From positions 3,233,129 to 3,265,128 of the forward strand of contig NZ_CP054475.1 of NCBI RefSeq assembly GCF_025345565.1: 32,000 nucleotides of DNA, in the 5' to 3' direction. The notes under the pieces were generated by a model. That model was not told the origin of the DNA, searched no databases, and saw nothing but the letters and a program-made list of their open reading frames with translations. This document shows positions 1,654-21,242 of this stretch, piece after piece. This DNA is from Thalassolituus hydrocarboniclasticus (lineage in GTDB: Bacteria > Pseudomonadota > Gammaproteobacteria > Pseudomonadales > Oceanobacteraceae). The position numbers and the translations under genes are program-made. The first letter of the stretch is position 1, and each line of letters opens with the position of its first letter.

Positions 1654-1693
1654 TCACCATAGCGTTATGGCTTGCGCCTGACGCAATAAAAAA

Positions 1694-1725: not shown

Positions 1726-1741
1726 GAGCCGAACGTCGAGA

Positions 1742-1827: not shown

Positions 1828-1976
1828 AGACTGAAGCGTTGGCAAGGCAGCCAGCACAAGGCGAAAATCTTTGAGAAAGCGGAGTTTACTGAAGTAATTG
1901 AGCATTTCGAACAGGCTTCCATTGCTCTTAACGGAGTATCAATAACTGAGCGTTATCGAGGCCGGCAGAGCGCGGC

Positions 1977-2037
1977 AAAAACAGGCCAAAGAAACGGAGC
2001 TTACAAATGCTAAGTGAGTATTCTTTGGCCTGTTTTT
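1977..2037. terminator. 17-bp perfect inverted repeat; possible bidirectional terminator downstream of purU
   Basis: aaaaacaggccaaagaa (1977-1993) is the exact reverse complement of ttctttggcctgttttt (2021-2037). The loop is 27 nt, which is long for a terminator. A- and T-runs form the outer ends of the arms. The purU stop is at 2064. Confidence 0.45.
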
Positions 2038-2063
2038 AACAAAGCTATGCCAACGCAGATAGC

Positions 2064-2915: not shown

Positions 2916-3035
2916 AGAAATCCACTACTGGCTCATACAGCTGCCACTCTGGCCCGAAAGGCTATTGCACCTGCGCGGGGGAAGTGATCAACTGAAGCCA
3001 ACTAAAAAACAATAATAAGTATCGGAGAGACGCCT

Positions 3036-3812
3036 ATGTTACTCCTTAGATCCCTGATTCTCACCCTGTTTGTCGGCTTTTCAGCACAGGCCAGCAGTAA
3101 TTCTCTGGAACAGAATGTTTTCGATCTCAGTGTCGGCGTCAAAACCCTGCTGCTGCGCTATTACCACCTGCAGGCTGATGAAGGTAATCAACAGCTGCTG
3201 AACGAGCTGAACCGTCACCTGCTGCTGGTTAACGAGCAGCAACTAAGCGTCAGTAATGAGCTGCAGAATATTCAGCTGAACAACGGCAGTAACCCCCAGC
3301 AAAATATCGACAGCCACTGGCAGAAATTCCGGACCCTGATGCAGCAGAATATTCATGAAATTGAAGTGAATGACTTCCCGGAGCTGCAGGTCGTGGCCAT
3401 GATGCGTGATGCTTCCAATGCCATGATCAGTGAACTGGAAAAAATCGGCGATGCCCTGCGCCAGAGCGGCGAGTTCTCAGTATCTGCGATTGAAGGCTGG
3501 ACCCGCAGCCAGAAACGGCTGCTGCTGGGAATTACTGAACGTTATCTGGAGCGTGCAGCCTCTTCAATGGGTGCCCCACTCAGCAACAATCAGGATATCG
3601 ACCAGCTCTGCCAGCAATTTGCCCGTGGTCTTGACAGCATTGACAGTAAAACTCTTGGCACAAAGGGGCAGGCTGCGCTACGCCGCATCCGCAGCCAGTG
3701 GTTGTTTGTCGAAAAATCCGCCACCGACACCGAAGCCAAGCTGGTACCCTTTCTGGTCATGCGTTACACCCATAACATGCTCGATCAGCTGAGCAGCATT
3801 GCTGCCAGCTGA
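3036..3812 (+). CDS. Secreted/periplasmic helical protein of unknown function
   Basis: 258 aa with signal peptide MLLLRSLILTLFVGFSAQA. The rest is Gln/Leu-rich and predicted helical. An RBS ggagag lies upstream. It is faintly reminiscent of PilJ/NarX-type four-helix sensor modules, but I cannot support that assignment. Confidence 0.55.
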   Translation: MLLLRSLILTLFVGFSAQASSNSLEQNVFDLSVGVKTLLLRYYHLQADEGNQQLLNELNRHLLLVNEQQLSVSNELQNIQLNNGSNPQQNIDSHWQKFRTLMQQNIHEIEVNDFPELQVVAMMRDASNAMISELEKIGDALRQSGEFSVSAIEGWTRSQKRLLLGITERYLERAASSMGAPLSNNQDIDQLCQQFARGLDSIDSKTLGTKGQAALRRIRSQWLFVEKSATDTEAKLVPFLVMRYTHNMLDQLSSIAAS

Positions 3813-3822
3813 TCAGATTGCA

Positions 3823-4494
3823 TTATTTTTCCAGAAGCTGGCGCGGATCGGTTGCCGGATCAGAGTTACTCTCTGCCGCTGAACGAATACTCTGACTCAG
3901 AATCCGGTCGGCGTCGACCGGCCCCAGACATTCACAAACACCAATATAAATAAAATTCAGCAGACGTTTTAAGTCAGTCAGGCCCACTGCGCTGAGATTC
4001 AGCGGATGCCGTTCATCCCCCCACAAATTAAAGGCATAAGCCAGATCCTGCGAAATGCTATGCCGCAGAGACTGTTCCATCGCATAACGCTTAACAACCC
4101 GCGCAGTATCCGAACGCAGTTGCCCGAACAAGGTTGTCAGTACGACATCGTAGACTTGCGTCCAGTCCTGCTGCTGAAACAATTCCATTCTATCCAGACT
4201 GTTACTCTGCGCCTGATCTGACTGAAATTTCAGCATGTCTTCCATAGGATCAGGCTGTAGCTGGGCACTACCATCCATCAGAACCCCGATCAGCTGCCGG
4301 TATAAGTTTGCCCGGTTTTCAGCCACCTCAGGTATATCGCGGCAGTCGGATAAAAATCCGTTTAATTCAAACTGAGACTTTTGGGCATAATTATTTTGCC
4401 AGCGCCACATTGCCCGCCATAAACCATCGCCTTCCAGAGTGGCATTAAGCACAGTAAATACAGCCCGTCTTTTCTGTTCAATCGTCATAGTCAT
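3823..4494 (-). CDS. Hypothetical cytoplasmic protein co-transcribed with amt
   Basis: 223 aa with no signal peptide or TM segment. It starts 10 nt after the amt stop on the same strand. I recognised no family. Confidence 0.55.
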   Translation of the reverse strand: MTMTIEQKRRAVFTVLNATLEGDGLWRAMWRWQNNYAQKSQFELNGFLSDCRDIPEVAENRANLYRQLIGVLMDGSAQLQPDPMEDMLKFQSDQAQSNSLDRMELFQQQDWTQVYDVVLTTLFGQLRSDTARVVKRYAMEQSLRHSISQDLAYAFNLWGDERHPLNLSAVGLTDLKRLLNFIYIGVCECLGPVDADRILSQSIRSAAESNSDPATDPRQLLEK

Positions 4495-4504
4495 GCGCAG
4501 CTAC

Positions 4505-8105: not shown

Positions 8106-9842
8106 TCAATAGTAGCTGAGAATCTCTTTGATACCCGTATTCTGTTCAACCTCAACCGATTTATGTACTGTTTTTACCGGTTTAACAATGGCATCCCGGC
8201 CCAACTTATAACTTTGCTCTTTGACGACCACCTGATAAGCCTTATTAAGCATCAGGGCACGTTCTGGCTCCGGCAAAAGCAAGTGACCGATATTCTCAGA
8301 CAGTTTTTCAAATTCCTGTAACTTAGGGCTTCGGTCGTCATTAAAGAACTTATTCAGGACTTCTTTATTATCACGGAATTCATTACCGCTTGGGTTTTGC
8401 TCAAGATAATAAGCATACTCGCCGCGCCCATCCTCACGCATGGGATCAGCGACACCTTCGAGTCCTTTTTCCAGCCAGTGATACCAGCCATTGCGGAAAC
8501 TTCCATGATCAAACTTACGGAAAAATGAAATAGTAGTGTCATTCGATGCGCCGATATAACCGTGACATCCGGTACAGAAATACGTTTCTTCGTAGGTCTG
8601 AGGACGTAACTGACCGGCATCATCCTCAATAAAACCCTGATATGTCCATCCCTGAGCAACCGTTAATCCGGACTCCATATTTCCCAGAGCAACTTTAGTA
8701 CGCCATGGAAAGTCGTGACGTTCTTTAATTTCATCATTAACAATACTGCGTAACTGATAGTAGTTTCTCCAGGAGTTCTTTCTGGAGTAACGCACTTCTT
8801 TCATGCGTCTGGCCATGACAACTTTGCCATTGTTAACGTCCAGGTAGCGTACAGTATGAAGAAACTCAGTACCTTCAGGGTATAAGCGTGCTGCCAGATG
8901 AATGTCACCCTGCTCCAGAAGCTCCTTAGCCTGACCAACATAACTCATCATACGGTTTTCTTTTGGCGCCCAGTCATACTTAATGTATGTCGCCTTAGAC
9001 AAGGTTCCATTTTTATCCAGATCAACGCCATATAACGTTTCGTCAGTTTTTTCGATCGGAATATCTTTTTCCTTTATCAGTGATTCGACAATGGCAAAGT
9101 TAATTCTGTAAGCCAGCAGATCAAATTCTCCGTCTTTATTACGGCGAAAAGCTTCCGGAAGCCGGATCATCACATCATCCGTCGAACCGTTCGTTGGCAT
9201 AAAAGTTCCCAGAAACGGGTAATAGGCAAATACTCGCCAGCCGGTATATTCACCTGCCGGCGAGACATCAAAACCCTGTTCATCAAAAGAAAAATATGCA
9301 TCAGGGATATAACCATCCCAACGGCCGTTTTTATTACGGTCCCATTCTTTTGGCAGGTTGTTCAGTTTGGCAGCCAGGATAATACCGCCATTATCAGAGA
9401 AGTAGTTATCTTCTCTGACGTAATTAATAATCTCCTGATCTGAAACGTTAGCAATATCGTCTGTGCGATCTTTAAACAGATTATCCCAGTTGTTTTTCAG
9501 CCCTGTTTCAGGGAAGTTATAGCCGACCTGAACATCGGTATCATTAAGATAATTCGGTCGTTTACTTTCGGTATGACACGCATAACAAGGATTCTGAACT
9601 CCCTGTTCAGAAACCGGGTCGGTATAACATTGTGGCGGAATGTAAGCCACAGGATTATCCGTAGCATCAGCAGTAAGATCAACCAGTGTGCCGAAGGTAT
9701 AGCCAGTGGCAACCGGGTTGGTTTTATTAGCCGCAGCGGAATCATCCGCCGACATCATTGATCGCTCACCATCAGACGATGTAAAACAACCAGATAAAAA
9801 CAGGGTAAACCCGCCAACCAACAACAATGAGTGTGTTTTCAT
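8106..9842 (-). CDS. Lipoprotein with two c-type haem-binding (CxxCH) motifs, otherwise unknown family
   Basis: 578 aa with signal peptide plus canonical lipobox LSGC. CYACH is encoded at 9573-9587 and CTGCH at 8562-8576. Both were verified on the DNA by reverse complement (ccttgttatgcgtgtcat and ttctgtaccggatgtcac). Confidence 0.7.
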   Translation of the reverse strand: MKTHSLLLVGGFTLFLSGCFTSSDGERSMMSADDSAAANKTNPVATGYTFGTLVDLTADATDNPVAYIPPQCYTDPVSEQGVQNPCYACHTESKRPNYLNDTDVQVGYNFPETGLKNNWDNLFKDRTDDIANVSDQEIINYVREDNYFSDNGGIILAAKLNNLPKEWDRNKNGRWDGYIPDAYFSFDEQGFDVSPAGEYTGWRVFAYYPFLGTFMPTNGSTDDVMIRLPEAFRRNKDGEFDLLAYRINFAIVESLIKEKDIPIEKTDETLYGVDLDKNGTLSKATYIKYDWAPKENRMMSYVGQAKELLEQGDIHLAARLYPEGTEFLHTVRYLDVNNGKVVMARRMKEVRYSRKNSWRNYYQLRSIVNDEIKERHDFPWRTKVALGNMESGLTVAQGWTYQGFIEDDAGQLRPQTYEETYFCTGCHGYIGASNDTTISFFRKFDHGSFRNGWYHWLEKGLEGVADPMREDGRGEYAYYLEQNPSGNEFRDNKEVLNKFFNDDRSPKLQEFEKLSENIGHLLLPEPERALMLNKAYQVVVKEQSYKLGRDAIVKPVKTVHKSVEVEQNTGIKEILSYY

Positions 9843-9854
9843 AAACCTACCAGA

Positions 9855-9882
9855 AACAAAAAAGGGCAGCCGTAGCTGCCCC
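9855..9882 (-). terminator. Hairpin terminator (or attenuator) between the PhoX-like gene and the haem-motif lipoprotein gene
   Basis: The minus strand reads gggcagc-tacg-gctgccc followed by ttttttgtttct. Confidence 0.6.
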
Positions 9883-9901
9883 TGATGTTAAATATCAAAT
9901 A

Positions 9902-11734
9902 TTACTGTACGTTTACAGCCGGGAAAGGCCCAACGTAACCGGTGTAAGCACGGGCTTCACCTGAACCGGTATCTTTATCGTCGTCTGTCTCAACATATGG
10001 ATGCTGAACAACTGTCGTCAGATAAGACCAGCCATTGATGTTCGGATACCAGTATGGAGAGGTGGTTTCTGAGCCATACGGGGTGGTCAGAATGCGGGTC
10101 AGTTTTTTCTCTGAAGCAAAATCATAAGCCCACAAAGCATCATTCTGGTGTGTAGTACCTGCATCTTCACCGATGATCAGCATGTCATAACCTGAGATAT
10201 AGGTAACGTTATCCGGCTCGGCGATGCCATCAATATGGCAGCTGTTTTTGGCTTCAAAACCAGCAACCTGTGGGTCAGCAATACTGACCGGACGTCCGGC
10301 GACCAGGCCATACATGTTGTGAGCCACGTAATTGGAGCCGATTGCAGAGTCAGGACCAAGGTCCATCTGATAGACCGCGCCACATTTGTTTTCTTCATCC
10401 AGCTGAATATGATCCGGGCCACCGACATCACCGGAAGTACCAGCCAGCATGCCTTTAGTAACGTTGGACATACCTACGTACATTTTGTGACGCTTGCTGT
10501 CGTAGGTAATCCCTTCTTCTTTACGGAATTCAGTGGTTGCACCCAACATGGCTGCATAGCGACGGGTTTCCAGACGCGAAGCTACTTTTTCCATACCGGC
10601 TTTAACTTTCAGACACTCCTGGCCAACACCATTGGCATTGATCGACGTAAATCCTGCGCTACACGCATTGCCAACCGGATCTTCTGAATCAAAGATGTCG
10701 TTAAAGGTAACCTTGGTTTTACCATTGGTACCGTGCACATAATCGCTGATTTCAGCATTGGTAGCATGACCCAGACTGATCCAGGTCAGATCAGCTGCAC
10801 CAATACCGGTAGAATCTGTCTGGTTCCATTTAGCAGCGTAAGTAGTACCAGCACTCAGATCACCGGCGGTATCAGCCACAAACATATACAGACCAACGTT
10901 AGTACCATCATCAGTCATATAGGTTGTTTTTGAATCAGGCATTACATAAGCCAGTTCGTATGCCAGACGCCCCATTGCATAATGTTTTTCAGTAGTAACA
11001 GCAGCATTTTCCGCAACAGTTACTTCAATATTCCAGCCGTAGAAGTATGGGTTCCATTCGCTCGCTTCAGCATAGTAGTCGAGCATAGAAGCAGAATAAC
11101 TGCTCAGAGCAGCTTCAGCACTGGTTGGCTGTTTTTTAGCATCCGGTTCATATTCCTCTGACGCCAGATGAGTAGTCCATGGAGTAACAGAACCGGCACA
11201 GTGAACCCAGCCACCATCAATGCCTGATTGATCAATCTGAGTTAAGTTAGCAACGCTCAGCTTGCCGTTGTCTTTATCCTGATTCAGCTCCATCAGGAAC
11301 ATGGCACCAGGGCGATCTTCAAACTGAGAAACAGAATACAGTTTATTGCCAATTGGCAGCAGAGAAGTAAATTCGTTGGAATCAGAAATACGGACTGAAC
11401 CATCGTCTTCAGTCAGAACAGTACCCGCTTTATTGACCAGCTGACCAAATGCAACGCCAGAAATAACATCACCTGAGCGTGCCAGTACGTTATATTCACC
11501 GGCATAAATTTTGCCGTTTACAATGGCTTGTGAAACTGTAATTTCACGCTTTTCGGCATCGGTGGCCGGTGCGGCAACGCCTACAAACTTCATAAAGGCC
11601 GGGCTGCCGTTTACGCCATCAGCCCCGGTGTCACCATTAGAACCATCATCACCACCACAGGCTGCCAGGCTCGCGGCCGTAGCAATAACCATCGCCTGCA
11701 AAAGACGCTTTTTCTGAAAAAGTTCCATCGTCAT
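9902..11734 (-). CDS. PhoX/DUF839-family beta-propeller lipoprotein (putative phosphatase)
   Basis: 610 aa with lipobox LAAC after a hydrophobic signal. It has no twin-arginine motif. PhoX-family hallmark contexts are GGWVHCAGSVTPWTTHLASEEYEP and the C-terminal GIAEPDNVTYISGYDMLIIGEDAG. The start may be the second ATG at 11728, judging by RBS spacing. Confidence 0.72.
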   Translation of the reverse strand: MTMELFQKKRLLQAMVIATAASLAACGGDDGSNGDTGADGVNGSPAFMKFVGVAAPATDAEKREITVSQAIVNGKIYAGEYNVLARSGDVISGVAFGQLVNKAGTVLTEDDGSVRISDSNEFTSLLPIGNKLYSVSQFEDRPGAMFLMELNQDKDNGKLSVANLTQIDQSGIDGGWVHCAGSVTPWTTHLASEEYEPDAKKQPTSAEAALSSYSASMLDYYAEASEWNPYFYGWNIEVTVAENAAVTTEKHYAMGRLAYELAYVMPDSKTTYMTDDGTNVGLYMFVADTAGDLSAGTTYAAKWNQTDSTGIGAADLTWISLGHATNAEISDYVHGTNGKTKVTFNDIFDSEDPVGNACSAGFTSINANGVGQECLKVKAGMEKVASRLETRRYAAMLGATTEFRKEEGITYDSKRHKMYVGMSNVTKGMLAGTSGDVGGPDHIQLDEENKCGAVYQMDLGPDSAIGSNYVAHNMYGLVAGRPVSIADPQVAGFEAKNSCHIDGIAEPDNVTYISGYDMLIIGEDAGTTHQNDALWAYDFASEKKLTRILTTPYGSETTSPYWYPNINGWSYLTTVVQHPYVETDDDKDTGSGEARAYTGYVGPFPAVNVQ

Positions 11735-11794
11735 CTCTCTCTAAGACTATATGATCAGGAGTTATTTCCTGGGGCGTTAAGCTAGTAGAGAAAA

Positions 11795-11845
11795 ATGACA
11801 GTAAGCGTGCACTTTTATGACAGATATAAGACGATTTCATGACAG
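11795..11845 (-). promoter_or_regulatory. Array of three Pho-box-like heptamers (CTGTCAT) upstream of the PhoX-like gene
   Basis: On the minus strand CTGTCAT occurs at 11845-11839, 11823-11817 and 11801-11795, exactly 22 bp apart (two helical turns). The proximal segment reads CTGTCAT-AAAA-GTGCACG-CTTA-CTGTCAT, so it keeps the 7+4 periodicity of PhoB boxes. Confidence 0.65.
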
Positions 11846-11848
11846 CAA

Positions 11849-12523
11849 TCAGTAACGCCGTACCTGGACCACCACACGACGATTAGCAGCACGCTGCTGT
11901 TCAATTGTCTGGGCCTGATCCACTTCTTTCGGTCTGCTGTCAGCAAAGCCTGACGCCTTAAGACGTTCCTTGGCAACGCCCTGACTCATCAGATATTTAA
12001 CCACATGGGTCGCTCTGGCTGCTGATAATTCCCAGTTGGAGGGAAATTGCTCATTGGCAATGGGAATATCATCAGTGTGACCTTCCACTTCAATCATATG
12101 TGTTTCGTGGCTGGTATCGCGGATAATCGCGGATACCTTTTCCAACAGGGGAACTGCATCGGCTTTTAAATCGGCGGAGCCGGAGTCATAGAGTGCAACG
12201 TTGGCAAACTCCACTTTAACCCCTCGCTGATCAAGGACCACCGACAACTGATCCTGCAGGCCATTCTGCTCGATATAATCATCCAGCGCTTTTTTAATAT
12301 CGGTAAAGGGCGTTGTTTGCTGTCGATCTGTCATTACCGTCGACAATCCTTCCTGCAGCGCTTCTACTTTGCCCTGATCGATATCAGAGACCGACAGAAT
12401 CATCACAAAAAAAGCCAGCAGCAGCGTAATGGCATCAGAATAAGTGATAAGCCAGGAACTGGAGGAATCGTCAAAATTAGGCCGGCGACGGCGCAGGCCA
12501 CGACGCTTTAACGCATCATCCAC
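11849..12523 (-). CDS. MotB/PomB-like stator subunit (plug/TM plus OmpA-like peptidoglycan-binding domain)
   Basis: 224 aa with a GTG start preceded by GGAGG at 6 nt. The TM segment SWLITYSDAITLLLAFFVMILS carries the conserved channel Asp, encoded at 12434-12436. The C-terminal OmpA-like motif is VEGHTDDIPI...FPSNWELSAARATHVVKYL...NRRVVVQV. Confidence 0.85.
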   Translation of the reverse strand: MDDALKRRGLRRRRPNFDDSSSSWLITYSDAITLLLAFFVMILSVSDIDQGKVEALQEGLSTVMTDRQQTTPFTDIKKALDDYIEQNGLQDQLSVVLDQRGVKVEFANVALYDSGSADLKADAVPLLEKVSAIIRDTSHETHMIEVEGHTDDIPIANEQFPSNWELSAARATHVVKYLMSQGVAKERLKASGFADSRPKEVDQAQTIEQQRAANRRVVVQVRRY

Positions 12524-12546
12524 GGCATGCCTCCGGGTATATCAGC

Positions 12547-13347
12547 TCAGAGTTCTTCATCGGCAAGCTGCAGACGAACCGATGGTTTAAGAAAGGCATT
12601 CAGCCTGTCCTGAATAAACAAGGCATCACGCTTTTCCGCCAGCATAACGAAACCTTCGGTAATCAGCTGATGGCGGTAATAAAGTGCTTCCTGTTTTTCC
12701 GTAACCTGATTGGCTGCCGGTTTAAAAAATAAATTCGCCAGTACCACACCATAAAGCGTGGTAATTAATGCCAGCGCCAGCCCCTGACCTAACCCGGCCA
12801 TATCACCGTTCAGGTTATCCAGCATGATAATCAGACCAATAATCGTGCCGACCATACCAAAACCCGGAGCGTAGGTTGCCATGGTATTCAGCACCTTGGA
12901 TTCCAGCGTATGCCGCTGCCAAGTGGCATCCATGGCATCACTCAGCATTATGCGGATTTCGTGGTTTTTATAACCCGAACCAATCAGCTCCATCGCATGA
13001 CACAGGTATTCGTCTTTACTTTCTTCTTTATTCAGACTCTGCTCAAGGGCACTGATACCACCCTGACGATACAGGTTGCTCCAGTCAACAAAGCGGCTAA
13101 CCAGTGTGCGCAAATGCTTTTGCGATGTCGGAGTATGAAAAAAAGTCTGCACCATACTACGCATAGCAATCAGAACATCACCGCTGCTGTAGCTGATCAG
13201 TGAGGCCGCTAACGTACTGCCCAGTACCAGCGCCAGACTGGAAAGACTCATAAATATCTGGTGATGATCCGTACTGCTGACGATGGCAAATGCAAACAGG
13301 CTGATACCGGCGCAAAAGCCGATCAGGGTGCTGAATGAAAACATCAT
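12547..13347 (-). CDS. MotA/PomA-like stator subunit
   Basis: 266 aa with 4-TM MotA topology. It is collinear by eye with Vibrio PomA (YRQGGISALEQS vs ARKGGFLALEEM; YAPGFGMVGTIIGL vs VAPAMGMIGTLVGL; ALITTLYGVVLANLFFKPAAN vs ALLTTLYGAILSNMVFFPIAD). Its ATG abuts the stop codon of the upstream gene (TAAATG). Confidence 0.85.
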   Translation of the reverse strand: MMFSFSTLIGFCAGISLFAFAIVSSTDHHQIFMSLSSLALVLGSTLAASLISYSSGDVLIAMRSMVQTFFHTPTSQKHLRTLVSRFVDWSNLYRQGGISALEQSLNKEESKDEYLCHAMELIGSGYKNHEIRIMLSDAMDATWQRHTLESKVLNTMATYAPGFGMVGTIIGLIIMLDNLNGDMAGLGQGLALALITTLYGVVLANLFFKPAANQVTEKQEALYYRHQLITEGFVMLAEKRDALFIQDRLNAFLKPSVRLQLADEEL

Positions 13348-15255
13348 TTATTCCTGCCCCTGCGACTGTTTAGCAATAGGCGCCAGCTCTTCCATAGAGA
13401 AACGTCCGGCTTTCAGTACATCACGCATTTTCTGTACAACCTGTTTGCGTCCGGCTTCTACCGTTTCCTGAGCAATATCTGCTTCGGTTGTTTTAAGCTC
13501 TGCAATAACGGCTGCGCGCAATTTAGCAGGCAAGGCTGCCAGCACATGGCGTTTAAATTCCGTTGATGTATGACATAAGGCAGCGGCCAGAACACCGCGA
13601 TCTATATCACGCAGCTCATTCGCCAGTACCCGCTCCGGAGCGCGGGCCATATCGGCAAAGGTAAAATAGACCTGACGCAGTCGATAATAGGTTTCCGGCT
13701 TTTCACCTTTTAAGGTTTTCAGTAAGCGGGTTTCTTCAGCACTGTTCATGTTATCCAGCATACGTATCAGTACCGACAGGCCATCGGCACTGATATTCTC
13801 GAACGTTGGCACCGACAGTGACGCCTGTGCCAGACGGTCCGCCACGTCGCGGAAAGCAGAGACAGGGAGCGTATCGAACTGGCCGAGTTCATAAGCCACC
13901 GCCGCCTGATCTTTTTCTTTCATGCGCTGAATAATATCAGCAGCCCGTTCAGCCGGGAGCTGCGACATAACCAGAGCTTTGATGCGGGTATCCTCATCTT
14001 TAATCAGATACAGCACCTGTGAATCATTGAGTTTCTCCAGAAACGAAAACGGTGAATTACCCGCCGAGTTATCAGCTAAGCCCTGCTGAAGACGCTGCTG
14101 GAAAGCACTGAGTGATTGCAGCAACATCTCATTGCTCCAGTCAGTTTCGCTGCGCTGCTGCTCCAGCTCCTGCCACTCGGTACCGGTTAATGCGGGAACA
14201 AGGCTGCGCAATAACGGCTTACCCATCACTTCAAGCATTGCCGCTGCTTCAGAATACTGCTGTCGCTGCAGTCCCTGTTGCACCAGCTGCTGGAATAACT
14301 GTGGCTGAGACAATCCGGATGAAACCAGCGCCTGACGCACTTCATTAACCTGCCGTTTCAGTTCAACCTGCTGGTCATTTTCCTGTGCAACCACGGCACG
14401 ATTATCGCTATAACCGGTATCGGAACTTGCAGTTAAAGGAGCACTTACTGCAGGAATCATCCGGCGGCCTAACGCACGCATCCCGAAACCAATCACCAGC
14501 AATACCAGTAAAAGTGAAGCAAGCCAGAACCACAGCGCGTATTCATCCCAGATACTGAGCACAACAGGTTTTTCATTCTCCAGACGTTTAAATTCGGTAC
14601 GGACAATATTCAGCGTATCGCCACGTAATTCATCCAGCTGGGACTTGCGGGTAATCAGGTTACGCAGGAATTCAACCTGTTCATCATTCAGGGTACGGTC
14701 CACAACCAGAGTGATGGTCATTTTCTTGATGCTGTTGCGAAAGCCCAGTGTTTTCTCACGAATGGTCTGAATTTTGGTTTCGGCTTCCTGTTTCAGCTGG
14801 TCGGCATAATTGAGCACATCGGTACGCTCACGCTCCAGCTGTTGCACTTTATTCTGCAGCGCCTGAATTTCCTGCTCGTTTTCTTTCAAAAGCGGAAGCT
14901 CATTAACCGGAAGGCCTGGCAATGCTTCCAGCTCATTGTCATCAAAGGTTTTGATCGTACGTGGACGGATTTCCGCGACTGGCTGACGCACAGGAGGCTT
15001 AGGTAAAGCAGACCCAGGCGATGCCGGCTCATTGCTTTTCACCATAGTTCGGGTCTTTTGCAGTGTTGCTTCGACCTGAATAATAAAGCGGTTATCGCCC
15101 AGGTAAGATTTGATATCCCGTGCCAGACGCGCTTCCATTTCATTCTTAAAGCGCGCCTCTTCCAGATCATCTTTTTTAACAGGCACTTCATAAGCCTGCT
15201 CTTCTGCAACAACCAGAAGAGAGACAAAGCAAAGTAAGACAGTAAGAATTCTCAT
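13348..15255 (-). CDS. Bitopic membrane protein: FliF/YscJ-like ring-building motif (periplasm) fused to FliG-like middle and C-terminal domains (cytoplasm)
   Basis: The track ORF starts at a TTG (15261). I prefer the ATG at 15255, which has AGGAG 6 nt upstream overlapping the upstream stop codon. The N-terminal signal/TM is followed by RLARDIKSYLGDNRFIIQVEATL and MTITLVVDRTLNDEQVEFLRNLITRKSQLDELRGDTLNIVRTEF. The latter compares with Salmonella FliF LSVAVVVN...LTADQMKQIEDLTREAMGFSDKRGDTLNVVNSPF. TM2 is encoded at 14479-14541. The C-terminal 230 aa or so (13387-14055) are collinear with FliG_M and FliG_C. Confidence 0.7.
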   Translation of the reverse strand: MRILTVLLCFVSLLVVAEEQAYEVPVKKDDLEEARFKNEMEARLARDIKSYLGDNRFIIQVEATLQKTRTMVKSNEPASPGSALPKPPVRQPVAEIRPRTIKTFDDNELEALPGLPVNELPLLKENEQEIQALQNKVQQLERERTDVLNYADQLKQEAETKIQTIREKTLGFRNSIKKMTITLVVDRTLNDEQVEFLRNLITRKSQLDELRGDTLNIVRTEFKRLENEKPVVLSIWDEYALWFWLASLLLVLLVIGFGMRALGRRMIPAVSAPLTASSDTGYSDNRAVVAQENDQQVELKRQVNEVRQALVSSGLSQPQLFQQLVQQGLQRQQYSEAAAMLEVMGKPLLRSLVPALTGTEWQELEQQRSETDWSNEMLLQSLSAFQQRLQQGLADNSAGNSPFSFLEKLNDSQVLYLIKDEDTRIKALVMSQLPAERAADIIQRMKEKDQAAVAYELGQFDTLPVSAFRDVADRLAQASLSVPTFENISADGLSVLIRMLDNMNSAEETRLLKTLKGEKPETYYRLRQVYFTFADMARAPERVLANELRDIDRGVLAAALCHTSTEFKRHVLAALPAKLRAAVIAELKTTEADIAQETVEAGRKQVVQKMRDVLKAGRFSMEELAPIAKQSQGQE

Positions 15256-15264
15256 CAGCAACTC

Positions 15265-15966
15265 CTACTGCTTCAGCCGGTCAAGGCTGGCCTTGACCTG
15301 ATCAAGACTGGGATCAAGTTTAAGCGCCTGCTCCCAGCTGGAACGGGCTTCCGGCAACAGGCCCATCTTGTAATAGATACTGCCTTTTAATGCATGCGCC
15401 TGAGCGGAATCCGGTAAATTATCGAGTGCTGCATTGGTTTCATCCAAAGCCTGCCAATATTGTTTTTTATAGAATAATGACTGGGCATTGAGAATGTGCT
15501 TAGTGGTATTTTCAACCCTCTGATTTTTGTTTTTTTCCTGCTGCTGAGCATTCTCATTCAGATTTTCATGAATTTCTTCAGCCGTCTTATCATCCAGCAT
15601 TTCGGTTATGTCTTCGTCGGCCTCCTGAGGTATTTCTGCTTCTGGCTGAACCGTCTTACCCGGCAGATCCATGACGAATTTCACGTCACTGTCACCGGCA
15701 TCCAAAGTCAGCAACACATCGTAACCATCACCATAACGGTGAATATGCATCAGGCCATGCTGTTTTTTGGCTTGCTCAGCGATTTCAGATTGTTTCTGGA
15801 TTTCTTCTTCTACAACCTCTGTTTCAGATACCCAGCCGGAATTACCATAACCTTTAACCACTTCATTAGTACGCTGATAGCTACAGGCGGCAGGCAAGAT
15901 AAAAACACTCAGGCTTAACAACCGGAACATCATGCGTACCTGGCATTTTACGCAGAATTTCATCAT
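15265..15966 (-). CDS. Secreted (possibly lipidated) TPR-repeat protein with an acidic linker
   Basis: 233 aa. The signal peptide MMFRLLSLSVFILPAAC has a non-canonical lipobox. The true start may be the internal Met at about 15933. An acidic low-complexity middle precedes C-terminal TPR repeats (YWQALDETNAALDNLPDSAQAHALKGSIYYKMGLLPEARSSWEQALKLDP). Its start overlaps the upstream stop (TGATG). Confidence 0.72.
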   Translation of the reverse strand: MMKFCVKCQVRMMFRLLSLSVFILPAACSYQRTNEVVKGYGNSGWVSETEVVEEEIQKQSEIAEQAKKQHGLMHIHRYGDGYDVLLTLDAGDSDVKFVMDLPGKTVQPEAEIPQEADEDITEMLDDKTAEEIHENLNENAQQQEKNKNQRVENTTKHILNAQSLFYKKQYWQALDETNAALDNLPDSAQAHALKGSIYYKMGLLPEARSSWEQALKLDPSLDQVKASLDRLKQ

Positions 15967-17036
15967 CAGAAACGTACCCCCAGCGTCAGGTCATAACTTG
16001 AACCGCCGAATTTCCCAACCTCTTCATAACCGTCTTTTTTATCCCAGCGGGCATCGACTTCTGGCAGGTAGGTGACGCCAAAATCCATAAAGCCATCACT
16101 GAAAAACGGGAATTCAAATCCAAAGCGGAAGATAAGGGAGTTGCTGTCATTGAAGAAGGCCTGCCCCATGCCCAGATACACCCGGGTATCGATCAGCTCA
16201 TCCATACTTGGAATATCGGCAATAATCCGGCCCTCGAGATTTATTCCTGATACGTTAAATAAATCGGTACCGGAGAAATTTCGGAAATATTCAATCGCCA
16301 GAGTATATTCCAGACTGTCATCAATACTGGTGGTTTCACGCCGGCGCAGACCAAATACAGTTACGCCATTAACTTCTTCAGAGCTGCCATCTGTCAGGTT
16401 TTTCCGGCTGCCATCAATCCCCCAGGCACCCACTGTTAATTCATAGTTAACCGCATCGAATCCCTGCTCTTCCTGTTCACGGGTCGTTATCTTCGAATAT
16501 TCCTTAAGCCACAACAGCTGATTATTCCGGCCGTCAACCATGCGCAGGTTGATGGTAAATTTGTCTTCGTGTACTGAAGCATTCCAGAAAATAAAAGCAT
16601 CCGCGCGCACGTGTTTGGCCAGAGCCCGGAGAGCCTGATTGGATTCTGCTGCGTGGGATATTTCCAGCTTATCGGCACGCATCGCTACCTGTGTAGTCCG
16701 GCACTCAATACACTGAATAACCTCAAAGCGTCCGCTATCCATAATCCGGTGCATCAGTTTATTTTCAATCATCAGATGCACCTGCTTGGGAATCTGACGA
16801 TGGAGACGATCACCATTATGATAAAGGGCAACACGGCGGATATTGCTGTCCAGATCGATAAGTTCTTCCAGAACCAGCGTTTTATCATCATCCAGCAATT
16901 GCCCGAAACCGGTATATAAAGAGGGGGCCGGTGAACTCAGTGGCAGCTCGGTTTTGTTATCGGCACAGGCCAGAGAGGGCAGTAACAGCAGGCTGATAAT
17001 CAGCGATAGCTGTTGGAATAGCGTCGGGGAGTTCAT
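15966..17036 (-). CDS. Signal-peptide protein: periplasmic alpha/beta N-domain plus outer-membrane beta-barrel-like C-half
   Basis: 356 aa with signal peptide and an AxA cleavage site (LACA/DN). The C-terminal half has alternating hydrophobic beta-strand patterns and ends in ...YDLTLGVRF. A terminal Phe is typical of BAM substrates. The RBS is AAGGA, 6 nt before the ATG. Confidence 0.6.
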   Translation of the reverse strand: MNSPTLFQQLSLIISLLLLPSLACADNKTELPLSSPAPSLYTGFGQLLDDDKTLVLEELIDLDSNIRRVALYHNGDRLHRQIPKQVHLMIENKLMHRIMDSGRFEVIQCIECRTTQVAMRADKLEISHAAESNQALRALAKHVRADAFIFWNASVHEDKFTINLRMVDGRNNQLLWLKEYSKITTREQEEQGFDAVNYELTVGAWGIDGSRKNLTDGSSEEVNGVTVFGLRRRETTSIDDSLEYTLAIEYFRNFSGTDLFNVSGINLEGRIIADIPSMDELIDTRVYLGMGQAFFNDSNSLIFRFGFEFPFFSDGFMDFGVTYLPEVDARWDKKDGYEEVGKFGGSSYDLTLGVRF

Positions 17037-17354
17037 TCAATATCCTTTCGTCAGGAGTCCTGATTTTTCTCCCTCCAGCTTAGTTCATATTTCAGAAACT
17101 GAAGTTTTCGCCAGCACTTATTCCGTTTACTTAACATGAGTTAAACAATCAGCACTTTAATACCTTTACTGATTCGCCAATTTTTTTACGGCAAATACCG
17201 CAGACGGGCGCAGATATCCAGCCTCTCTGTTTCCTTCATTTGCAGAACTTTTAAAACAGTGAAAATCTGCCTTTTTTCTGGCGATTTATTCTCGAAAAAG
17301 CGACAGAAAAACATTAAATCGTTTTTGTTCGTACAATCAGACTCAGTTCAGAGA

Positions 17355-17672
17355 CTAACGGCGCAGCATTTCCGCAACTTCACGATCTGTCTGCACCGCC
17401 AGACGCAAATCCCGGGCGGAAATTCCCTGTACGTCGTGACTCCACCACAACACCTCCAGCCTCCCCCAGCTTAAAGTCAGCTGTGGATGATGATCCTGCT
17501 GCTCGGCATGCACAGCAATATTATTAGCCAGATGCAGGGCTGCGCTGAAATTGTTCAGCGTTATGCTGCGCAGCAATGCCGGCACACCGGCAACCTGGGT
17601 TAACTGCCAGTGCGGATGCTCCGCCAGCCAGCTCTGCAATTGCGTGTCATCTATACGGTCGTCAGTCATCAT
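17355..17672 (-). CDS. phhB: 4a-hydroxytetrahydrobiopterin (pterin-4a-carbinolamine) dehydratase
   Basis: 105 aa with PCD signature EQQDHHPQLTLSWGRLEVLWWSHDVQGISARDLRLA (the HHP motif followed by a TH/SH..G(I/L)(T/S)..D pattern). Confidence 0.85.
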   Translation of the reverse strand: MMTDDRIDDTQLQSWLAEHPHWQLTQVAGVPALLRSITLNNFSAALHLANNIAVHAEQQDHHPQLTLSWGRLEVLWWSHDVQGISARDLRLAVQTDREVAEMLRR

Positions 17673-17771
17673 CCATCTCCCCGGGCAGAATATTCACATT
17701 AGCGGGAAAATCCGGCTTTGCAGAGTCTTTTCTGCGCCAATGTCATTCATACGATGGCTTTACGACAGGCA

Positions 17772-17800
17772 CAAAAAAAGGAGCCGGAGCTCCTTTTTTA
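17772..17800. terminator. Hairpin terminator downstream of the fumarase gene
   Basis: The sequence is aaaaaaaggagc-cgga-gctcctttttt. A- and T-runs lie on both sides, so it can work in either direction. Confidence 0.65.
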
Positions 17801-17832
17801 TGTATCGCGGTTTAACGCTTATGCGCCTGCGA

Positions 17833-19341
17833 TCAGACTTCGGTTGCGTTAATCTTGGCGTACCAGGTTTGCGGGCCGGTCTTATGTACCGACTCACCTT
17901 TGGTATCCACGGCCACGGTTACCGGCATATCTTCGACTTCAAATTCGTAGATCGCTTCCATGCCCAGATCATCAAAGCCAACAACCTTAGCGCCTTTGAT
18001 TGCCTGAGATACCAGATAAGCAGCGCCACCAACGGCCATCAGATACACAGCTTCGTTATCTTTAATGGCCTCAATGGCGATGTCGCCACGCTCAGATTTA
18101 CCGATCATGCCCAGCAGGCCGGTTTTTTCCAGCACGGTACGGGTGAACTTATCCATACGGGTCGCAGTCGTCGGGCCAGCCGGACCAACCACTTCTTCGC
18201 GTACCGGATCAACCGGGCCCACGTAATAGATAAAGCGGCCTTTCAGATCGACCGGCAGCTCTTCACCTTTAGCGATCATATCGACCATACGCTTATGCGC
18301 CGCATCACGGCCGGTCAGCATCTTGCCGGACAGCAGGACGGTTTCACCGGTTTTCCAGTCTTTTACGTCTTCCGGAGTGATGGTGTCCAGATTCACACGG
18401 CGTACAGAATCACCCACTTCCCAGGTGATCTGTGGCCAGTCTTCCACTTTCGGCGCTTTGAGAACCGCCGGGCCGGAACCATCCAGCACAAAGTGAGTGT
18501 GACGGGTTGCGGCACAGTTAGGAATAATCGCCACCGGCTTGTTTGCCGCGTGAGTCGGGTAATCAGCCACTTTGATGTCCAGTACAGTGGTCAGACCACC
18601 CAGACCCTGTGCACCAATGCCCAGTTTGTTCACTTTTTCGAACAGTTCCAGACGCAGTTCTTCGGCGCGGTTCTGTGCACCACGAGCCTGCAGTTCCTGA
18701 ATGTTGATTGGCTCCAGCAGTGCTTCTTTAGCCAGCATCATGGCTTTTTCAGCGGTACCACCGATACCAATGCCCAGCATACCCGGCGGACACCAGCCAG
18801 CACCCATTTTAGGCACCTGTTCCAGCACCCAATCAACGATGGAGTCAGACGGGTTCAGCATGGCGAACTTGGATTTGGCTTCAGAGCCGCCGCCTTTGGC
18901 TGCCACATGCACGTCCACGGTGTTACCCGGAACCAGTTTCATGTGGATGATGGCCGGCGTGTTGTCTTTGGTGTTGGCACGTTTGCCATCCGGATCAGCC
19001 AGCACAGAGGCGCGCAGCACGTTGTCAGGATGGGTGTAAGCGCGGCGTACGCCTTCGTTACACATATCCTCAACACTCATGTCGCCTTCGAACTTCACGT
19101 CCATACCAATGGTCAGGAACACGGTAACAATACCGGTATCCTGACAGATCGGACGGTGGCCCATGGCACACATACGGGAGTTGATCAGAATCTGCGCCAT
19201 GGCGTCTTTCGCAGCCTTGGACTCTTCGCGCTCATAAGCCGCATGCACGGCATCAATGAAGTCTTTCGGGTGATAGTACGAGATGTACTGCAGTGCATCA
19301 GCGACGCTCTGGATCAGGTCTTCTTGCTTGATCACAGTCAT
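17833..19341 (-). CDS. Class I (Fe-S) fumarate hydratase, single-chain alpha+beta type
   Basis: 502 aa. The N-terminus MTVIKQEDLIQSVADALQYISYYHP...RPICQDTGIVTVF matches the Pseudomonas-type class I fumarase / tartrate dehydratase family. A beta-subunit-like C-terminal half is also present. Confidence 0.92.
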   Translation of the reverse strand: MTVIKQEDLIQSVADALQYISYYHPKDFIDAVHAAYEREESKAAKDAMAQILINSRMCAMGHRPICQDTGIVTVFLTIGMDVKFEGDMSVEDMCNEGVRRAYTHPDNVLRASVLADPDGKRANTKDNTPAIIHMKLVPGNTVDVHVAAKGGGSEAKSKFAMLNPSDSIVDWVLEQVPKMGAGWCPPGMLGIGIGGTAEKAMMLAKEALLEPINIQELQARGAQNRAEELRLELFEKVNKLGIGAQGLGGLTTVLDIKVADYPTHAANKPVAIIPNCAATRHTHFVLDGSGPAVLKAPKVEDWPQITWEVGDSVRRVNLDTITPEDVKDWKTGETVLLSGKMLTGRDAAHKRMVDMIAKGEELPVDLKGRFIYYVGPVDPVREEVVGPAGPTTATRMDKFTRTVLEKTGLLGMIGKSERGDIAIEAIKDNEAVYLMAVGGAAYLVSQAIKGAKVVGFDDLGMEAIYEFEVEDMPVTVAVDTKGESVHKTGPQTWYAKINATEV

Positions 19342-19371
19342 GACGGGTTCTCTCTCATAGGCTCGCGGGTG

Positions 19372-19397
19372 TAAAAACGCCCACGTCGGTGGGCGTT
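19372..19397 (-). terminator. Hairpin terminator downstream of the 234-aa lipoprotein gene
   Basis: The minus strand reads acgcccac-cgac-gtgggcgt followed by ttttta. Confidence 0.55.
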
Positions 19398-19431
19398 ACA
19401 GTCGGCCTATTGTACCCCAACTACTGCCGGT

Positions 19432-20136
19432 CTAGAACGGCCACCACTCCTCGGCTTTAGTTCTAGGCTTGGCTTTGGCGCCGGATTCATCGCTCACCTC
19501 TTCGCTATCGGCATCAGCGCTGCCACCGAAGACCTGCTCAGCCATTTCATCTTCTGCCACCGGACGTGGTTTAAGACGATCACGACCATGATGAATCATT
19601 TTAGTTACCGGCAACTCTGCCAGAGCAATACTTGGCGCCACCAGCTGTAATGGTCCATCCCCGAGAGGGATATCTTCCAGATCCGGCTCAACGGTTGGCG
19701 GGTCTATCTCAGAATAACGCAGGTAATACACTTTACCGGGCTTAACATCGAGTCTGAGCTGCGCCACCCGTTTAATTACAAAGTCGCCAACACCTTCAAG
19801 CCCGAGCAGACCGCGGCGGATGATGACATCGTATTCCCCCGGCTCCATTTCATACCAGGTGTAACCGCCGCCCTTAATATTGAACAGGCGCTCATCATTC
19901 ACATTAAAGCTCGGAGTTTCCAGCTCATCCATCGACCACTGGGTAGCCGGACGATAAACGTAAATGAGGGCTGTATTTTCATAATCCCAGCGATAGCCGA
20001 CGGCTTTAAAAGGCTGTCCATCCGGCTCGGATACGTAGGAGCCGAAACTGTCACCAATGGATTGATGGATGGTACATCCGCCCAGCAGCAACGACAGCAG
20101 CACGGAAGAAAGACCAAGCGAGACGATTTTTATCAT
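19432..20136 (-). CDS. Lipoprotein of unknown function (DUF2846-like impression)
   Basis: 234 aa with lipobox LGGC. The ALIYVYRP motif and beta-rich core resemble the DUF2846 family as I remember it. It has an acidic C-terminal tail ending EEWWPF. Confidence 0.6.
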   Translation of the reverse strand: MIKIVSLGLSSVLLSLLLGGCTIHQSIGDSFGSYVSEPDGQPFKAVGYRWDYENTALIYVYRPATQWSMDELETPSFNVNDERLFNIKGGGYTWYEMEPGEYDVIIRRGLLGLEGVGDFVIKRVAQLRLDVKPGKVYYLRYSEIDPPTVEPDLEDIPLGDGPLQLVAPSIALAELPVTKMIHHGRDRLKPRPVAEDEMAEQVFGGSADADSEEVSDESGAKAKPRTKAEEWWPF

Positions 20137-20328
20137 TATTATTTTCCTGCCCGTATTGGGTAAAAGCTGTACCCGGCGACATAAAGCGCCTGCTTTGCTG
20201 CATCGTCAGCCAGGGTCCCTGCCCGGCAAAATTTACAGTGCAAAACCGGCTCACCAGTGTACATAAAAAACTCAGCTTGCTATGATGACATACTTACAAA
20301 AAATAACAAAAACAAAAGGGGTCAACTC

Positions 20329-20820
20329 ATGGAAAGATCCTGTTTTATCATCGCCTGCATCCTTCTGCCACTGGCTGCTGCCCACACACAGGCGGCACCG
20401 GTGAATGAGTCTTACTATTCCTCTGATCTTGAGGATGCCGTTGCGGAAGCTAAACGCAATCCGGTCAACAGCGAGTACGTTGGCCGCTCCTGGTACAACC
20501 GCAGCACCTCCAAGAGCTTCCCGCTGCCGAAACTGCTGAATACCGAAATGGATGCCGAAGTGGTAGAAGGCGCTATGGGCCCGACCGCAGCCGGTGAAGC
20601 GGCCGCCCTCGAAGCTCAGCAACCTGTGCGTGATATCGCTCAGGGCCGCAAAAGCAAGCAGGAAACCCTGGCCGAAGCCAAGAAAAAGCAGGATAAGCCG
20701 GACGAAGAACGGGTTGTTGAACGCTCGCAGGAAATTCACGTACGCGAAGCCCGCTCGAGAGACAGCCGCGTAACGGACATCCGTGCCACCGTAAACATCA
20801 AGGCCACTTACAAGCCCTGA
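20329..20820 (+). CDS. Small secreted protein, paralog A
   Basis: I start at the internal ATG 20329 (MERSCFIIACILLPLAAAHTQAAP, a signal peptide) with RBS aagggg upstream. The track start at 20257 adds a non-signal extension. It shares a motif block of about 55 aa with the next gene. Confidence 0.62.
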   Translation: MERSCFIIACILLPLAAAHTQAAPVNESYYSSDLEDAVAEAKRNPVNSEYVGRSWYNRSTSKSFPLPKLLNTEMDAEVVEGAMGPTAAGEAAALEAQQPVRDIAQGRKSKQETLAEAKKKQDKPDEERVVERSQEIHVREARSRDSRVTDIRATVNIKATYKP

Positions 20821-20834
20821 GCGCCGAGGTCATT

Positions 20835-21242
20835 ATGAGAACAGCTGCGATCAGCCTGCTTACTCTGTTAGCCGCAACGACGCTCAGCGTCCGTGCGGCC
20901 AATCCTCATGATGAGTATTATTCGAACGATATTTTTACAGCAATCGAAGAAGCCAAGCAGCGTACCCACCATTACGACTACAGCCGGGCACAGCGCTATA
21001 ACCGCTCGACGTCGCAGAGCATTCAGTTCTCAAGGTTGCTGAACAAGGAGATGGCGCAAACCATCGTTGAAACACCGGACAGTATTGATGTTGATCCTAA
21101 AGCAGAAACCAGCGACAAACTGGATACAGACTCTCTGACACCACAGGACAGTGAGAAAATGCCGGCGATCGATACAGCACCACCATCCCTGCCCTCCAAC
21201 GTCAGCATCGGCACCACCTCGGTAACCATCACCGTACGCTGA
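20835..21242 (+). CDS. Small secreted protein, paralog B
   Basis: 135 aa with signal peptide MRTAAISLLTLLAATTLSVRAA. Its conserved block DEYYSNDIFTAIEEAKQ...YNRSTSQSIQFSRLLNKEM parallels ESYYSSDLEDAVAEAKR...YNRSTSKSFPLPKLLNTEM in paralog A. Confidence 0.62.
   Translation: MRTAAISLLTLLAATTLSVRAANPHDEYYSNDIFTAIEEAKQRTHHYDYSRAQRYNRSTSQSIQFSRLLNKEMAQTIVETPDSIDVDPKAETSDKLDTDSLTPQDSEKMPAIDTAPPSLPSNVSIGTTSVTITVR

Follow-up and report, generated by a model that had tools for sequence, protein, structure and literature searches.

In a 32,000-nucleotide stretch of the Thalassolituus hydrocarboniclasticus chromosome (assembly GCF_025345565.1, contig NZ_CP054475.1, positions 3,233,129 to 3,265,128 of the forward strand; hereafter the window), we found support for a single polypeptide that joins a split ring-building motif (RBM) of the flagellar protein FliF, an RGD motif and the second FliF transmembrane (TM) helix to the middle (M) and C-terminal (C) domains of FliG. 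Its gene is the third of five in a minus-strand operon (11849-17036), where genes for an OmpA-like barrel protein, a tetratricopeptide repeat (TPR) lipoprotein, the fusion, MotA and MotB follow one another with gaps of 0-23 nt or with overlaps. Homologues of all five proteins occur together in 43 of 47 related loci that we fetched, at identities down to 22-30%. The original prediction, which had left this gene context unused, called the fusion a stripped-down rotor; we infer the same, and the strongest support comes from the dedicated downstream MotAB pair and the conserved five-gene cassette. We rate it an evenly poised proposition that the cassette encodes a self-contained rotor-stator module of the cell envelope, assembled from flagellar motor parts but having neither a type III secretion system (T3SS) nor a switch.

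The fusion open reading frame (ORF) starts either at a TTG codon (13348-15261, minus strand; 637 residues) or two codons later at the ATG used by homologues (13348-15255, minus strand; 635 residues), and residue numbers here follow the TTG-start ORF. An identical 635-residue database protein (Thalassolituus hydrocarbon(i)clasticus) carries no annotation beyond "FliG C-terminal domain-containing protein". From its N-terminus the fusion consists of a signal peptide, a split FliF RBM3, RGDTLN, one TM helix, a helical region of ~110 residues and FliG M and C. In Pfam, FliG_M matched residues 414-484 (1.3e-15, 57.8 bits against a cutoff of 25), FliG_C residues 516-622 (4e-14, 53.2 bits against 23.3) and YscJ_FliF_C residues 52-224 (4.7e-5, 24.3 bits against 23.8); the FliG_M match was also present in 40 of 40 distant family members. 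When a profile of 32 family members was compared with sequences in the PDB, it found full-length FliG of Aquifex (3e-20) and Thermotoga (8e-18) and also Salmonella FliF (1.2e-9), and residues 232-525 of E. coli FliF matched the family profile with 38 bits. The AlphaFold2 (AF2) model of the fusion (predicted local distance difference test, pLDDT, 75) was matched by Foldseek to full-length FliG structures (1.9e-10 to 2e-8) and to ~20 structures of the FliF RBM3/collar (5e-4 to 5e-3), and its C-terminal helical bundle superposed on 8ucs_H, a FliG fragment bound to MotAB, with a TM-score of 0.87 and a root-mean-square deviation of 1.6 A. Pfam, PDB profile and Foldseek therefore agree with the earlier claim of a FliF-like/FliG-like fusion in one polypeptide. 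Strong purifying selection acts on the gene, whose ratio of nonsynonymous to synonymous substitution rates (dN/dS) relative to T. pacificus is 0.057.

The motifs on which the original prediction was built lie where it placed them: RLARDIKSY... at residues 45-67, MTITLVVD...RTEF at 181-224, the coiled coil at 128-150, the TM segment at 242-262, and the FliG-like stretches at 13930-14049 and 13495-13635. A better score of the C-terminal region as an MgtE N-terminal domain, with no torque helix, would have counted against that prediction, but FliG_M and FliG_C scored 58 and 53 bits, MgtE_N scored 24 bits, below its cutoff, and the torque-helix charges are present. An MgtE_N identity was accordingly rejected: its match (24.1 bits, cutoff 25.9) lies beneath the stronger FliG_M and FliG_C matches, and CBS and MgtE domains were absent from the Pfam results. 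The FliG equivalog TIGR00207 gave 60.7 bits and did not reach its cutoff of 226.7.

Hydropathy analysis detected only two hydrophobic segments in the fusion, residues 1-22 and 241-263. The first had been described as a signal or TM segment; the segment is there, but with its short h-region and the AxA-type end typical of Sec signal peptides, seen in all family members, it looks like a cleavable signal peptide, unlike FliF TM1, and the mature protein would then be single-pass. In the region that follows, a profile restricted to the periplasmic part aligned Salmonella FliF 235-270 with fusion residues 41-72 and FliF 380-477 with residues 180-272, the latter stretch comprising ...KRGDTLNVVNSPF... 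plus TM2. The ~110 residues of the FliF beta-collar (271-379) are replaced by a Pro-rich linker, the motif LPGLP and a 45-residue helix. The alignment of E. coli FliF to the fusion begins at residue 232 and, in the profile and E. coli FliF alignments, no part of the fusion aligned to FliF 50-230, that is, to RBM1 or RBM2, the periplasmic part being ~220 residues long. RGD was unchanged even among distant members. By profile and model, the periplasmic domain is thus predicted to be FliF RBM3, in agreement with the RBM fold proposed earlier; the support for the RBM3 half from Foldseek and Pfam is significant but modest. LPGLP is a candidate docking site for periplasmic partners. Because the TM helix is followed by RALGRR (positive-inside rule) and is collinear with FliF TM2, the FliG portion is predicted to be cytoplasmic, as the original prediction had also placed it. 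As a separate observation, the coiled coil is missing from the Aliivibrio and Vibrio homologues (549-601 residues; e.g., A. fischeri, L047 7001-8722), which retain LPGL and RGD.

Between the TM helix and FliG M, where the original prediction saw a Gln-rich linker, there is instead a conserved, confidently modelled region of ~110 residues (288-402) with six predicted helices and invariant G316, L317, P320, Q324, G347, L350 and S353. The Foldseek alignments span 305-323 columns of full-length FliG, and this region may contain a FliG_N-like remnant. In the window protein and in 16 other members checked, the Pfam FliG_N matches coincide with the FliG_M repeat, hhalign of the region against Aquifex FliG_N gave no significant match, and two weak hidden Markov model alignments (Aquifex and E. 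coli FliG) placed FliG_N in differing registers. That FliG_N is dispensable here, as the original prediction held, is therefore only a possibility. In the M domain, E-D-T-R (family consensus eEdtR) stands where FliG has its FliM-binding EHPQ motif, and an invariant Glu occupies the R160 position.

For a residue-level comparison, the E. coli fliF, fliG, motA and motB genes were fetched and aligned. In E. coli, MotA R90 contacts FliG D288/D289 and MotA E98 contacts FliG R281 (PMC12505986). In the torque helix of the fusion, K580 corresponds to R281, and A587/E588 to D288/D289; the R281 position is basic in 46 of the 47 loci and the D289 position acidic in 42. On the stator side, MotA R94 and E102 correspond to E. 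coli R90 and E98 with identical spacing and are kept in 45 and 46 of the 47 loci, respectively. Both partners thus keep the charge pairs in 42-46 of the 47 loci. Near the torque helix, C563 (13573-13575, minus strand) sits at the position of the conserved charged residue K264 of FliG and is Cys in 38 of 47 loci.

The stator A protein scored 163 bits with the NCBIfam model of MotP and 130 bits with that of PomA, against 19 bits with TolQ, although it stayed below the equivalog cutoffs (163 bits against 394). Its best PDB match was 8ucs_C, the MotA of a MotAB-FliG complex (1.3e-29), and both channel prolines are retained. Judged from these comparisons, the cassette MotA can be assigned to the flagellar PomA/MotP/MotA type and not to ExbB/TolQ. 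The channel Asp of MotB is kept in all loci examined. The first gene has a homologue in 42 of the 47 loci, and its product gave no sequence match in Pfam, NCBIfam or the PDB. In Foldseek searches its barrel resembled NspA (4.6e-6) and also OmpA, OmpX and Ail, and its N-terminal alpha/beta domain, presumably periplasmic, was modelled as resembling LpoB-C (6e-5) and TolB (3.7e-5). The second gene overlaps the stop of the first by 1 nt; the lipobox Cys of its product is retained in most homologues (Vibrio sp. SCSIO 43136 has a TPR protein without it), and PDB sequences returned only generic TPR matches. A PDB sequence search with the barrel and TPR proteins for MotX, MotY, FlgT and FlgO yielded nothing specific. 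Positions of all these features are collected in Table 1.

Table 1 The five genes, the predicted parts of the fusion protein and the upstream motif, with the basis of each assignment.
Feature	Position in window	Strand	Basis
Promoter-like motif CTGAAATATGAACTAAGCT, ~45-60 nt upstream of gene 1	17077..17095	-	core identical in four related genera, flanks diverge
Gene 1, 356-aa outer-membrane protein with signal peptide and 8-stranded C-terminal barrel ending ...LGVRF	15966..17036	-	AF2 pLDDT 77
Gene 2, TPR lipoprotein, at most 233 aa, lipobox Cys, two C-terminal TPR repeats	15265..15966	-	Pfam TPR_1 1e-7, TPR_2
Gene 3, FliF(RBM3)-TM-FliG fusion	13348..15255	-	Pfam, PDB profile, AF2, Foldseek
Signal-peptide-like N-terminus, aa 3-21, ...SLLVVA followed by EEQ	15199..15255	-	hydropathy; AxA-type ends across family
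Predicted RBM3 N-terminal half, aa 24-75: strand, helix, long strand	15037..15192	-	FliF alignments; AF2 secondary structure
Pro-rich linker, aa 76-121, at FliF beta-collar tip position	14899..15036	-	pLDDT <50; low conservation outside LPGLP
LPGLP motif, aa 114-118	14908..14922	-	invariant in alignment A1; LPG kept at 16-24% identity
Predicted long periplasmic helix/coiled coil, aa 122-166 (45 residues)	14764..14898	-	AF2 helix
Predicted RBM3 C-terminal half, aa 169-224, including RGDTLN at 14608-14625	14590..14757	-	aligns to FliF 380-430, ...KRGDTLNVVNSPF
TM helix, aa 241-263, FliF TM2 equivalent, then RALGRR (predicted cytoplasmic)	14473..14541	-	hydropathy; FliF collinearity
Conserved helical region, aa 288-402, in place of FliF C-terminus/FliG_N	14056..14400	-	AF2 pLDDT 81-88
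FliG middle (ARM_M) domain, aa 405-484	13810..14049	-	Pfam FliG_M; Thermotoga and E. coli FliG alignments
FliG C-terminal domain, aa 492-622, YFTF for MFXF hinge	13396..13788	-	Pfam; Foldseek 1qc7, 8ucs_H TM-score 0.79-0.88
Torque helix, aa 578-593, PAKLRAAVIAELKTTE	13483..13530	-	alignment to E. coli FliG
Gene 4, MotA/PomA-type stator A, 266 aa, start abuts fusion stop	12547..13347	-	Pfam MotA_ExbB 1.1e-23
Gene 5, MotB-type stator B, 224 aa, channel Asp (TYSD), plug, peptidoglycan-binding domain	11849..12523	-	Pfam MotB_plug 9.8e-15, OmpA 5.4e-18

A scan of species-representative genomes located 35 loci in Thalassolituus, Oleispira, Bermanella, Oceanobacter, Bacterioplanoides, Oceaniserpentilla and Gynuella, and the family also includes Aliivibrio fischeri, A. 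finisterrensis and Vibrio nigripulchritudo. Three of the four fetched loci that do not show all five homologues end on a short contig. The flanking genes vary among the loci, and distant members (22-30% identity) hold the same gene set in an order that is sometimes permuted: the window order is kept in L041, L043, L046 and L047, L044 has MotA-MotB-barrel-TPR-fusion, and the P0190 locus has the fusion, two other genes, MotA and MotB. A profile search of 1.84 billion representatives retrieved at least 163 clusters (50% identity) at E<1e-30, nearly all of 550-730 residues and matching from the C-terminal half of RBM3 through the end of FliG_C, and the motifs LPG, RGD and PFxFL persist at 16-24% identity. 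Across the four measurable cassette genes, dN/dS relative to T. pacificus was 0.02-0.08. Compared over L001-L037, the fusion of the Bermanella group is 38-39% identical to that of the window, against 60-63% for MotA/MotB and 51-54% for the barrel protein; by these sequence identities the fusion diverges much faster than MotA, MotB or the barrel within the cassette.

The cassette is non-flagellar. There are no flagellar genes in the window, no flagellar neighbours in the 47 loci, and no fliM or fliN in any locus. The Thalassolituus host is motile by a single polar flagellum (PMC9807766), and because its window holds no flagellar genes, the cassette is regarded as an addition to a normal flagellar system rather than a part of it. 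Since the module has no export gate, rod, hook or FliM/FliN and has lost EHPQ, it should be unable to build or switch a flagellum. The A. fischeri locus has the same order as the window, namely a 343-residue protein, a TPR protein, a 573-residue fusion, MotA (43% identity) and MotB (40% identity), with the fusion gene directly upstream of the MotA/MotB pair. That pair is the published motA2/VF_A0186 and motB2/VF_A0187 (PMC10804989), and from the gene order we place the fusion gene at VF_A0185. Insertion mutants of motA2 or motB2 in V. fischeri showed normal soft-agar motility (Brennan et al. 2013, PMC3948606), and FlrA, the master regulator of the flagellum, activates motA1B1 but not motA2B2 (PMC3948606). 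In a biofilm-inducing background, motA2B2 mRNA drops along with that of fliA and chemotaxis genes (PMC10804989).

A mechanism can be outlined from these parts. The fusion would be exported via its signal peptide and anchored by one TM helix, and its periplasmic RBM3 would oligomerise into a ring, the role of RBM3 in the FliF MS-ring of about 33-34 subunits, setting a 1:1 array of FliG domains beneath the inner membrane. Stators of the MotA5B2 type, fixed to peptidoglycan through MotB, would pass H+ or Na+ along the conserved MotB Asp, and the MotA R94/E102 loop would push the K580/E588 torque helix, turning or loading the ring. The output would be periplasmic: the LPGLP arm that replaces the collar, sometimes with its coiled coil, could contact the LpoB/TolB-N-like domain of the barrel protein, the TPR lipoprotein or both, and the ion-motive force of the inner membrane would thereby be coupled to the outer envelope. 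What the data show is the domain architecture, the conservation of catalytic and interface residues, the five-gene linkage, purifying selection and, for the A. fischeri orthologue, that swimming does not need the stator genes; ring formation, rotation, partner contacts and biological output are what we infer. The covalent FliF-FliG link is no obstacle, because engineered FliF-FliG fusions assemble rings (PMC11481574; 10.1101/2023.02.06.527414). The complete proposal, in which a minimal FliF-RBM3/FliG ring is spun by its own stators without secretion apparatus or filament and drives outer-membrane partners through the LPGLP arm, would make this the first stand-alone, non-flagellar rotary machine based on the FliG-MotA torque interface; we advance it tentatively, with a confidence somewhat below even.

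Several observations weigh against this proposal. The ring would have to form from an RBM3 with its beta-collar replaced, the YscJ_FliF_C match is barely over its cutoff (24.3 against 23.8 bits), and Foldseek matches FliF only at modest E-values of about 1e-3. The acidic residue of the torque helix is lost in the distant loci L042-L044 and L046. L042 has neither an adjacent MotAB nor a detectable barrel homologue, and two further distant loci are incomplete; L045 has no barrel protein. We recognised no output structure, and it is hard to see what purpose the rotation of an unattached ring would serve; the suggested contacts of LPGLP with the TPR or barrel protein are guesses. We know of no mutant phenotype for any member of the fusion family.

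The replaced collar, the ring-closing part of FliF, also fits the main rival reading, in which a few copies of the fusion associate with each MotAB without a closed ring and work as a non-rotary transducer of the Tol-Pal/Ton kind, stator action on the FliG part driving a conformational pull by the periplasmic extension. This extension would act on the TPR lipoprotein and on the TolB-N/LpoB-like domain of the barrel, serving, for example, outer-membrane tethering, remodelling of peptidoglycan or outer membrane, or uptake. The composition in five parts does parallel Tol-Pal, with a 5:2 motor, a helical protein that is anchored in the inner membrane and spans the periplasm, a TolB-N-like domain, a TPR protein as the counterpart of CpoB and a link of OmpA type between outer membrane and peptidoglycan, and the coiled coil is dispensable in Vibrionaceae whereas the short LPGL motif is not. 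However, Ton and Tol transducers couple through a TM helix within the membrane and not through a cytoplasmic FliG-MotA interface, the fusion family keeps FliG M and C in full along with both charge pairs, the hallmark of a ring-tangential gear contact, and RBM3 builds rings in every known context; we judge such a transducer unlikely.

A static role, in which the fusion is a non-rotating platform or decoy rotor that recruits or sequesters stators or reads ion flux as a signal of envelope state or load, would account for the lack of a recognisable output component and for the lost FliM/FliN interface, and the drop of motA2B2 mRNA with fliA and chemotaxis genes hints at lifestyle-linked regulation (PMC10804989). 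A decoy, however, needs no stators of its own and no barrel and lipoprotein kept together across deep divergence, the motA2B2 mutants swim unchanged (PMC3948606), and the strict retention of the MotB channel Asp and plug and of the MotA prolines argues for ion-driven work, making a static role decidedly improbable. That the cassette is a genuine flagellar component, i.e., an alternative rotor/stator for the polar flagellum or part of a cryptic second system, used under conditions beyond those assayed, is very improbable: every recognisable domain is flagellar, databases label the protein FliG and soft-agar assays cover one condition only, but RBM1/RBM2, which hold the export gate, and the EHPQ FliM site are absent, TIGR00207 gives 61 against 227 bits, the 47 loci have no adjacent flagellar genes, the cassette lies outside the FlrA regulon, and the partners it supplies, an outer-membrane barrel and a TPR lipoprotein, are not rod or ring proteins.

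Upstream of the first gene, the promoter-like motif occurs as the variants CTGAACTA[AT]GCTGA and GTCTATGCT in Oleispira, Oceanobacter and Bermanella loci, and its GAAC element could be the -35 box of a sigma factor of the extracytoplasmic function type. A consensus scan for sigma-70 promoters and terminators gave no enrichment above shuffled sequences, and an Rfam scan of the window detected no riboswitch or RNA element. Genes for a DUF2846 protein, fumarate hydratase and pterin-4a-carbinolamine dehydratase form a block beside the cassette both in Thalassolituus and in Bermanella-type loci (window 17355-20136, compared with L001 1782-5497 and L003 2903-5689), which points to vertical inheritance in that lineage, with the chromosomal site unchanged. 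A plasmid-borne or mobile origin was considered and set aside, as tblastn against 72,556 plasmids gave only canonical FliG at 23% identity. Among the distant loci, L044 has Wza/Wzc/Wzy-type polysaccharide export genes as neighbours (9614-15819), L045 a MoxR-DUF58-VWA (Bat-like) operon (11496-14573), and L043 genes resembling a type IV secretion system (1099-4501); no neighbour association holds consistently across the loci.

Directly downstream of motB in the window lie genes for a PhoX-like alkaline phosphatase lipoprotein (610 residues) and a 578-residue lipoprotein with two CxxCH haem motifs (8106-11734, minus strand). The two were rejected as cassette members, the downstream genes not being conserved with the cassette in other loci. 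Elsewhere in the window, a 607-residue ORF (17551-19374, plus strand) that runs antisense to the gene for class I fumarate hydratase (17833-19341, minus strand) is almost certainly spurious. Two adjoining small secreted proteins of 187 and 135 residues (20257-21242, plus strand) look like paralogues, sharing YYSxD...A..EAK...NRSTSxS, and have no Pfam match. Type II secretion genes for a GspD secretin (637 residues, by coincidence the length of the fusion ORF), a GspC-like and a GspN-like protein occupy 24554-28147 (minus strand).

To our knowledge, FliG and MotAB are known as a working pair only inside flagella. If the module works as outlined, a conserved operon that keeps only the torque pair, joined to the smallest ring-building piece of FliF and tied to outer-membrane proteins, would represent a second biological use of the FliG-MotA interface, either as a flagellar motor core exapted for an envelope function or as a surviving relative of a pre-flagellar rotor. 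It would also offer a much simpler system for work on rotor-stator mechanics, with only five genes, a 1:1 stoichiometry that is fixed, and neither switch nor export gate, and it would be genetically tractable in Vibrio fischeri, giving the orphan motA2B2 of this squid symbiont a concrete, testable context. The module bears on a long-standing question of flagellar evolution as well, namely whether the rotor/stator core could exist independently of the type III export apparatus.

Compared with the flagellar FliF/FliG/MotAB motor, the cassette shares the RBM3 halves, RGD, TM2, FliG M and C with the torque helix, a PomA/MotP-like R/E loop in MotA, and a MotB with channel Asp, plug and peptidoglycan-binding domain; the 1:1 ratio of FliF to FliG, fixed here, is a further likeness. 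It differs in being one polypeptide with no RBM1/RBM2, a replaced collar, a signal peptide in place of TM1 and no EHPQ, and in having no export gate, rod or FliM/FliN and, as partners, an OmpA-like barrel and a TPR lipoprotein. Inner-membrane ion motors with periplasm-spanning and outer-membrane partners are also found in TolQRA-Pal-TolB-CpoB, ExbBD-TonB, GldLM, AglRQS-Glt and ZorAB, and the TolB-N-like and TPR parts of the cassette recall Tol-Pal; however, a cytoplasmic rotor domain of the FliG type and an RBM ring are foreign to all these 5:2 motors, and the cassette MotA, by its model scores, belongs to the flagellar clade and not to that of ExbB/TolQ. Zorya defence, with its long-tailed ZorA and ZorC/D/E, was rejected as an identity: PADLOC gave weak generic cross-matches to MotA/MotB (ZorA 17.6 bits) and no effector genes. 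In Vibrio, the accessory proteins of the T-ring and H-ring (the Sel1/TPR-like MotX, and MotY, FlgT and FlgO) show that repeat and TolB-N-like proteins can scaffold PomAB-type stators and link a motor to the outer membrane. The TPR and barrel proteins of the cassette could play analogous roles, a resemblance in fold class and role only, as the Pfam, NCBIfam and PDB searches detected no sequence similarity.

In the literature searched, whose coverage is thin for subscription journals, we found no prior description of the fusion family or of the five-gene cassette. Engineered and spontaneous FliF-FliG fusions of Salmonella and Vibrio alginolyticus (PMC11481574, PDB 8z4d) resemble the window protein in that the covalent link is compatible with ring assembly, but they combine full-length FliF and full-length FliG in a complete flagellar system and come from laboratory constructs or mutants, whereas the window protein belongs to a natural stand-alone family. 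Among the loci studied before, the closest is motA2B2 of V. fischeri (VF_A0186/VF_A0187, PMC3948606), an orthologous cassette with the same gene order, where only the stator genes have been named and tested, as paralogues without a motility role, and where the periplasmic coiled coil is absent. The closest natural precedent is the FliF-FliG fusion of Chlamydiaceae (Bergeron 2016, PeerJ; 10.1101/023564), likewise a natural single polypeptide with a signal sequence, reduced RBMs, a TM segment and a cytoplasmic FliG-like domain in a flagellum-less context. The chlamydial protein, however, has ~330 residues, RBM2 plus one RBM-like domain, only the middle domain of FliG, no MotAB and a proposed T3SS partner, whereas the window fusion has 635 residues, RBM3, FliG M and C with the torque helix, and a dedicated stator. 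The cassette thus presents known parts of the flagellar motor in a new, flagellum-independent architecture and gene context.

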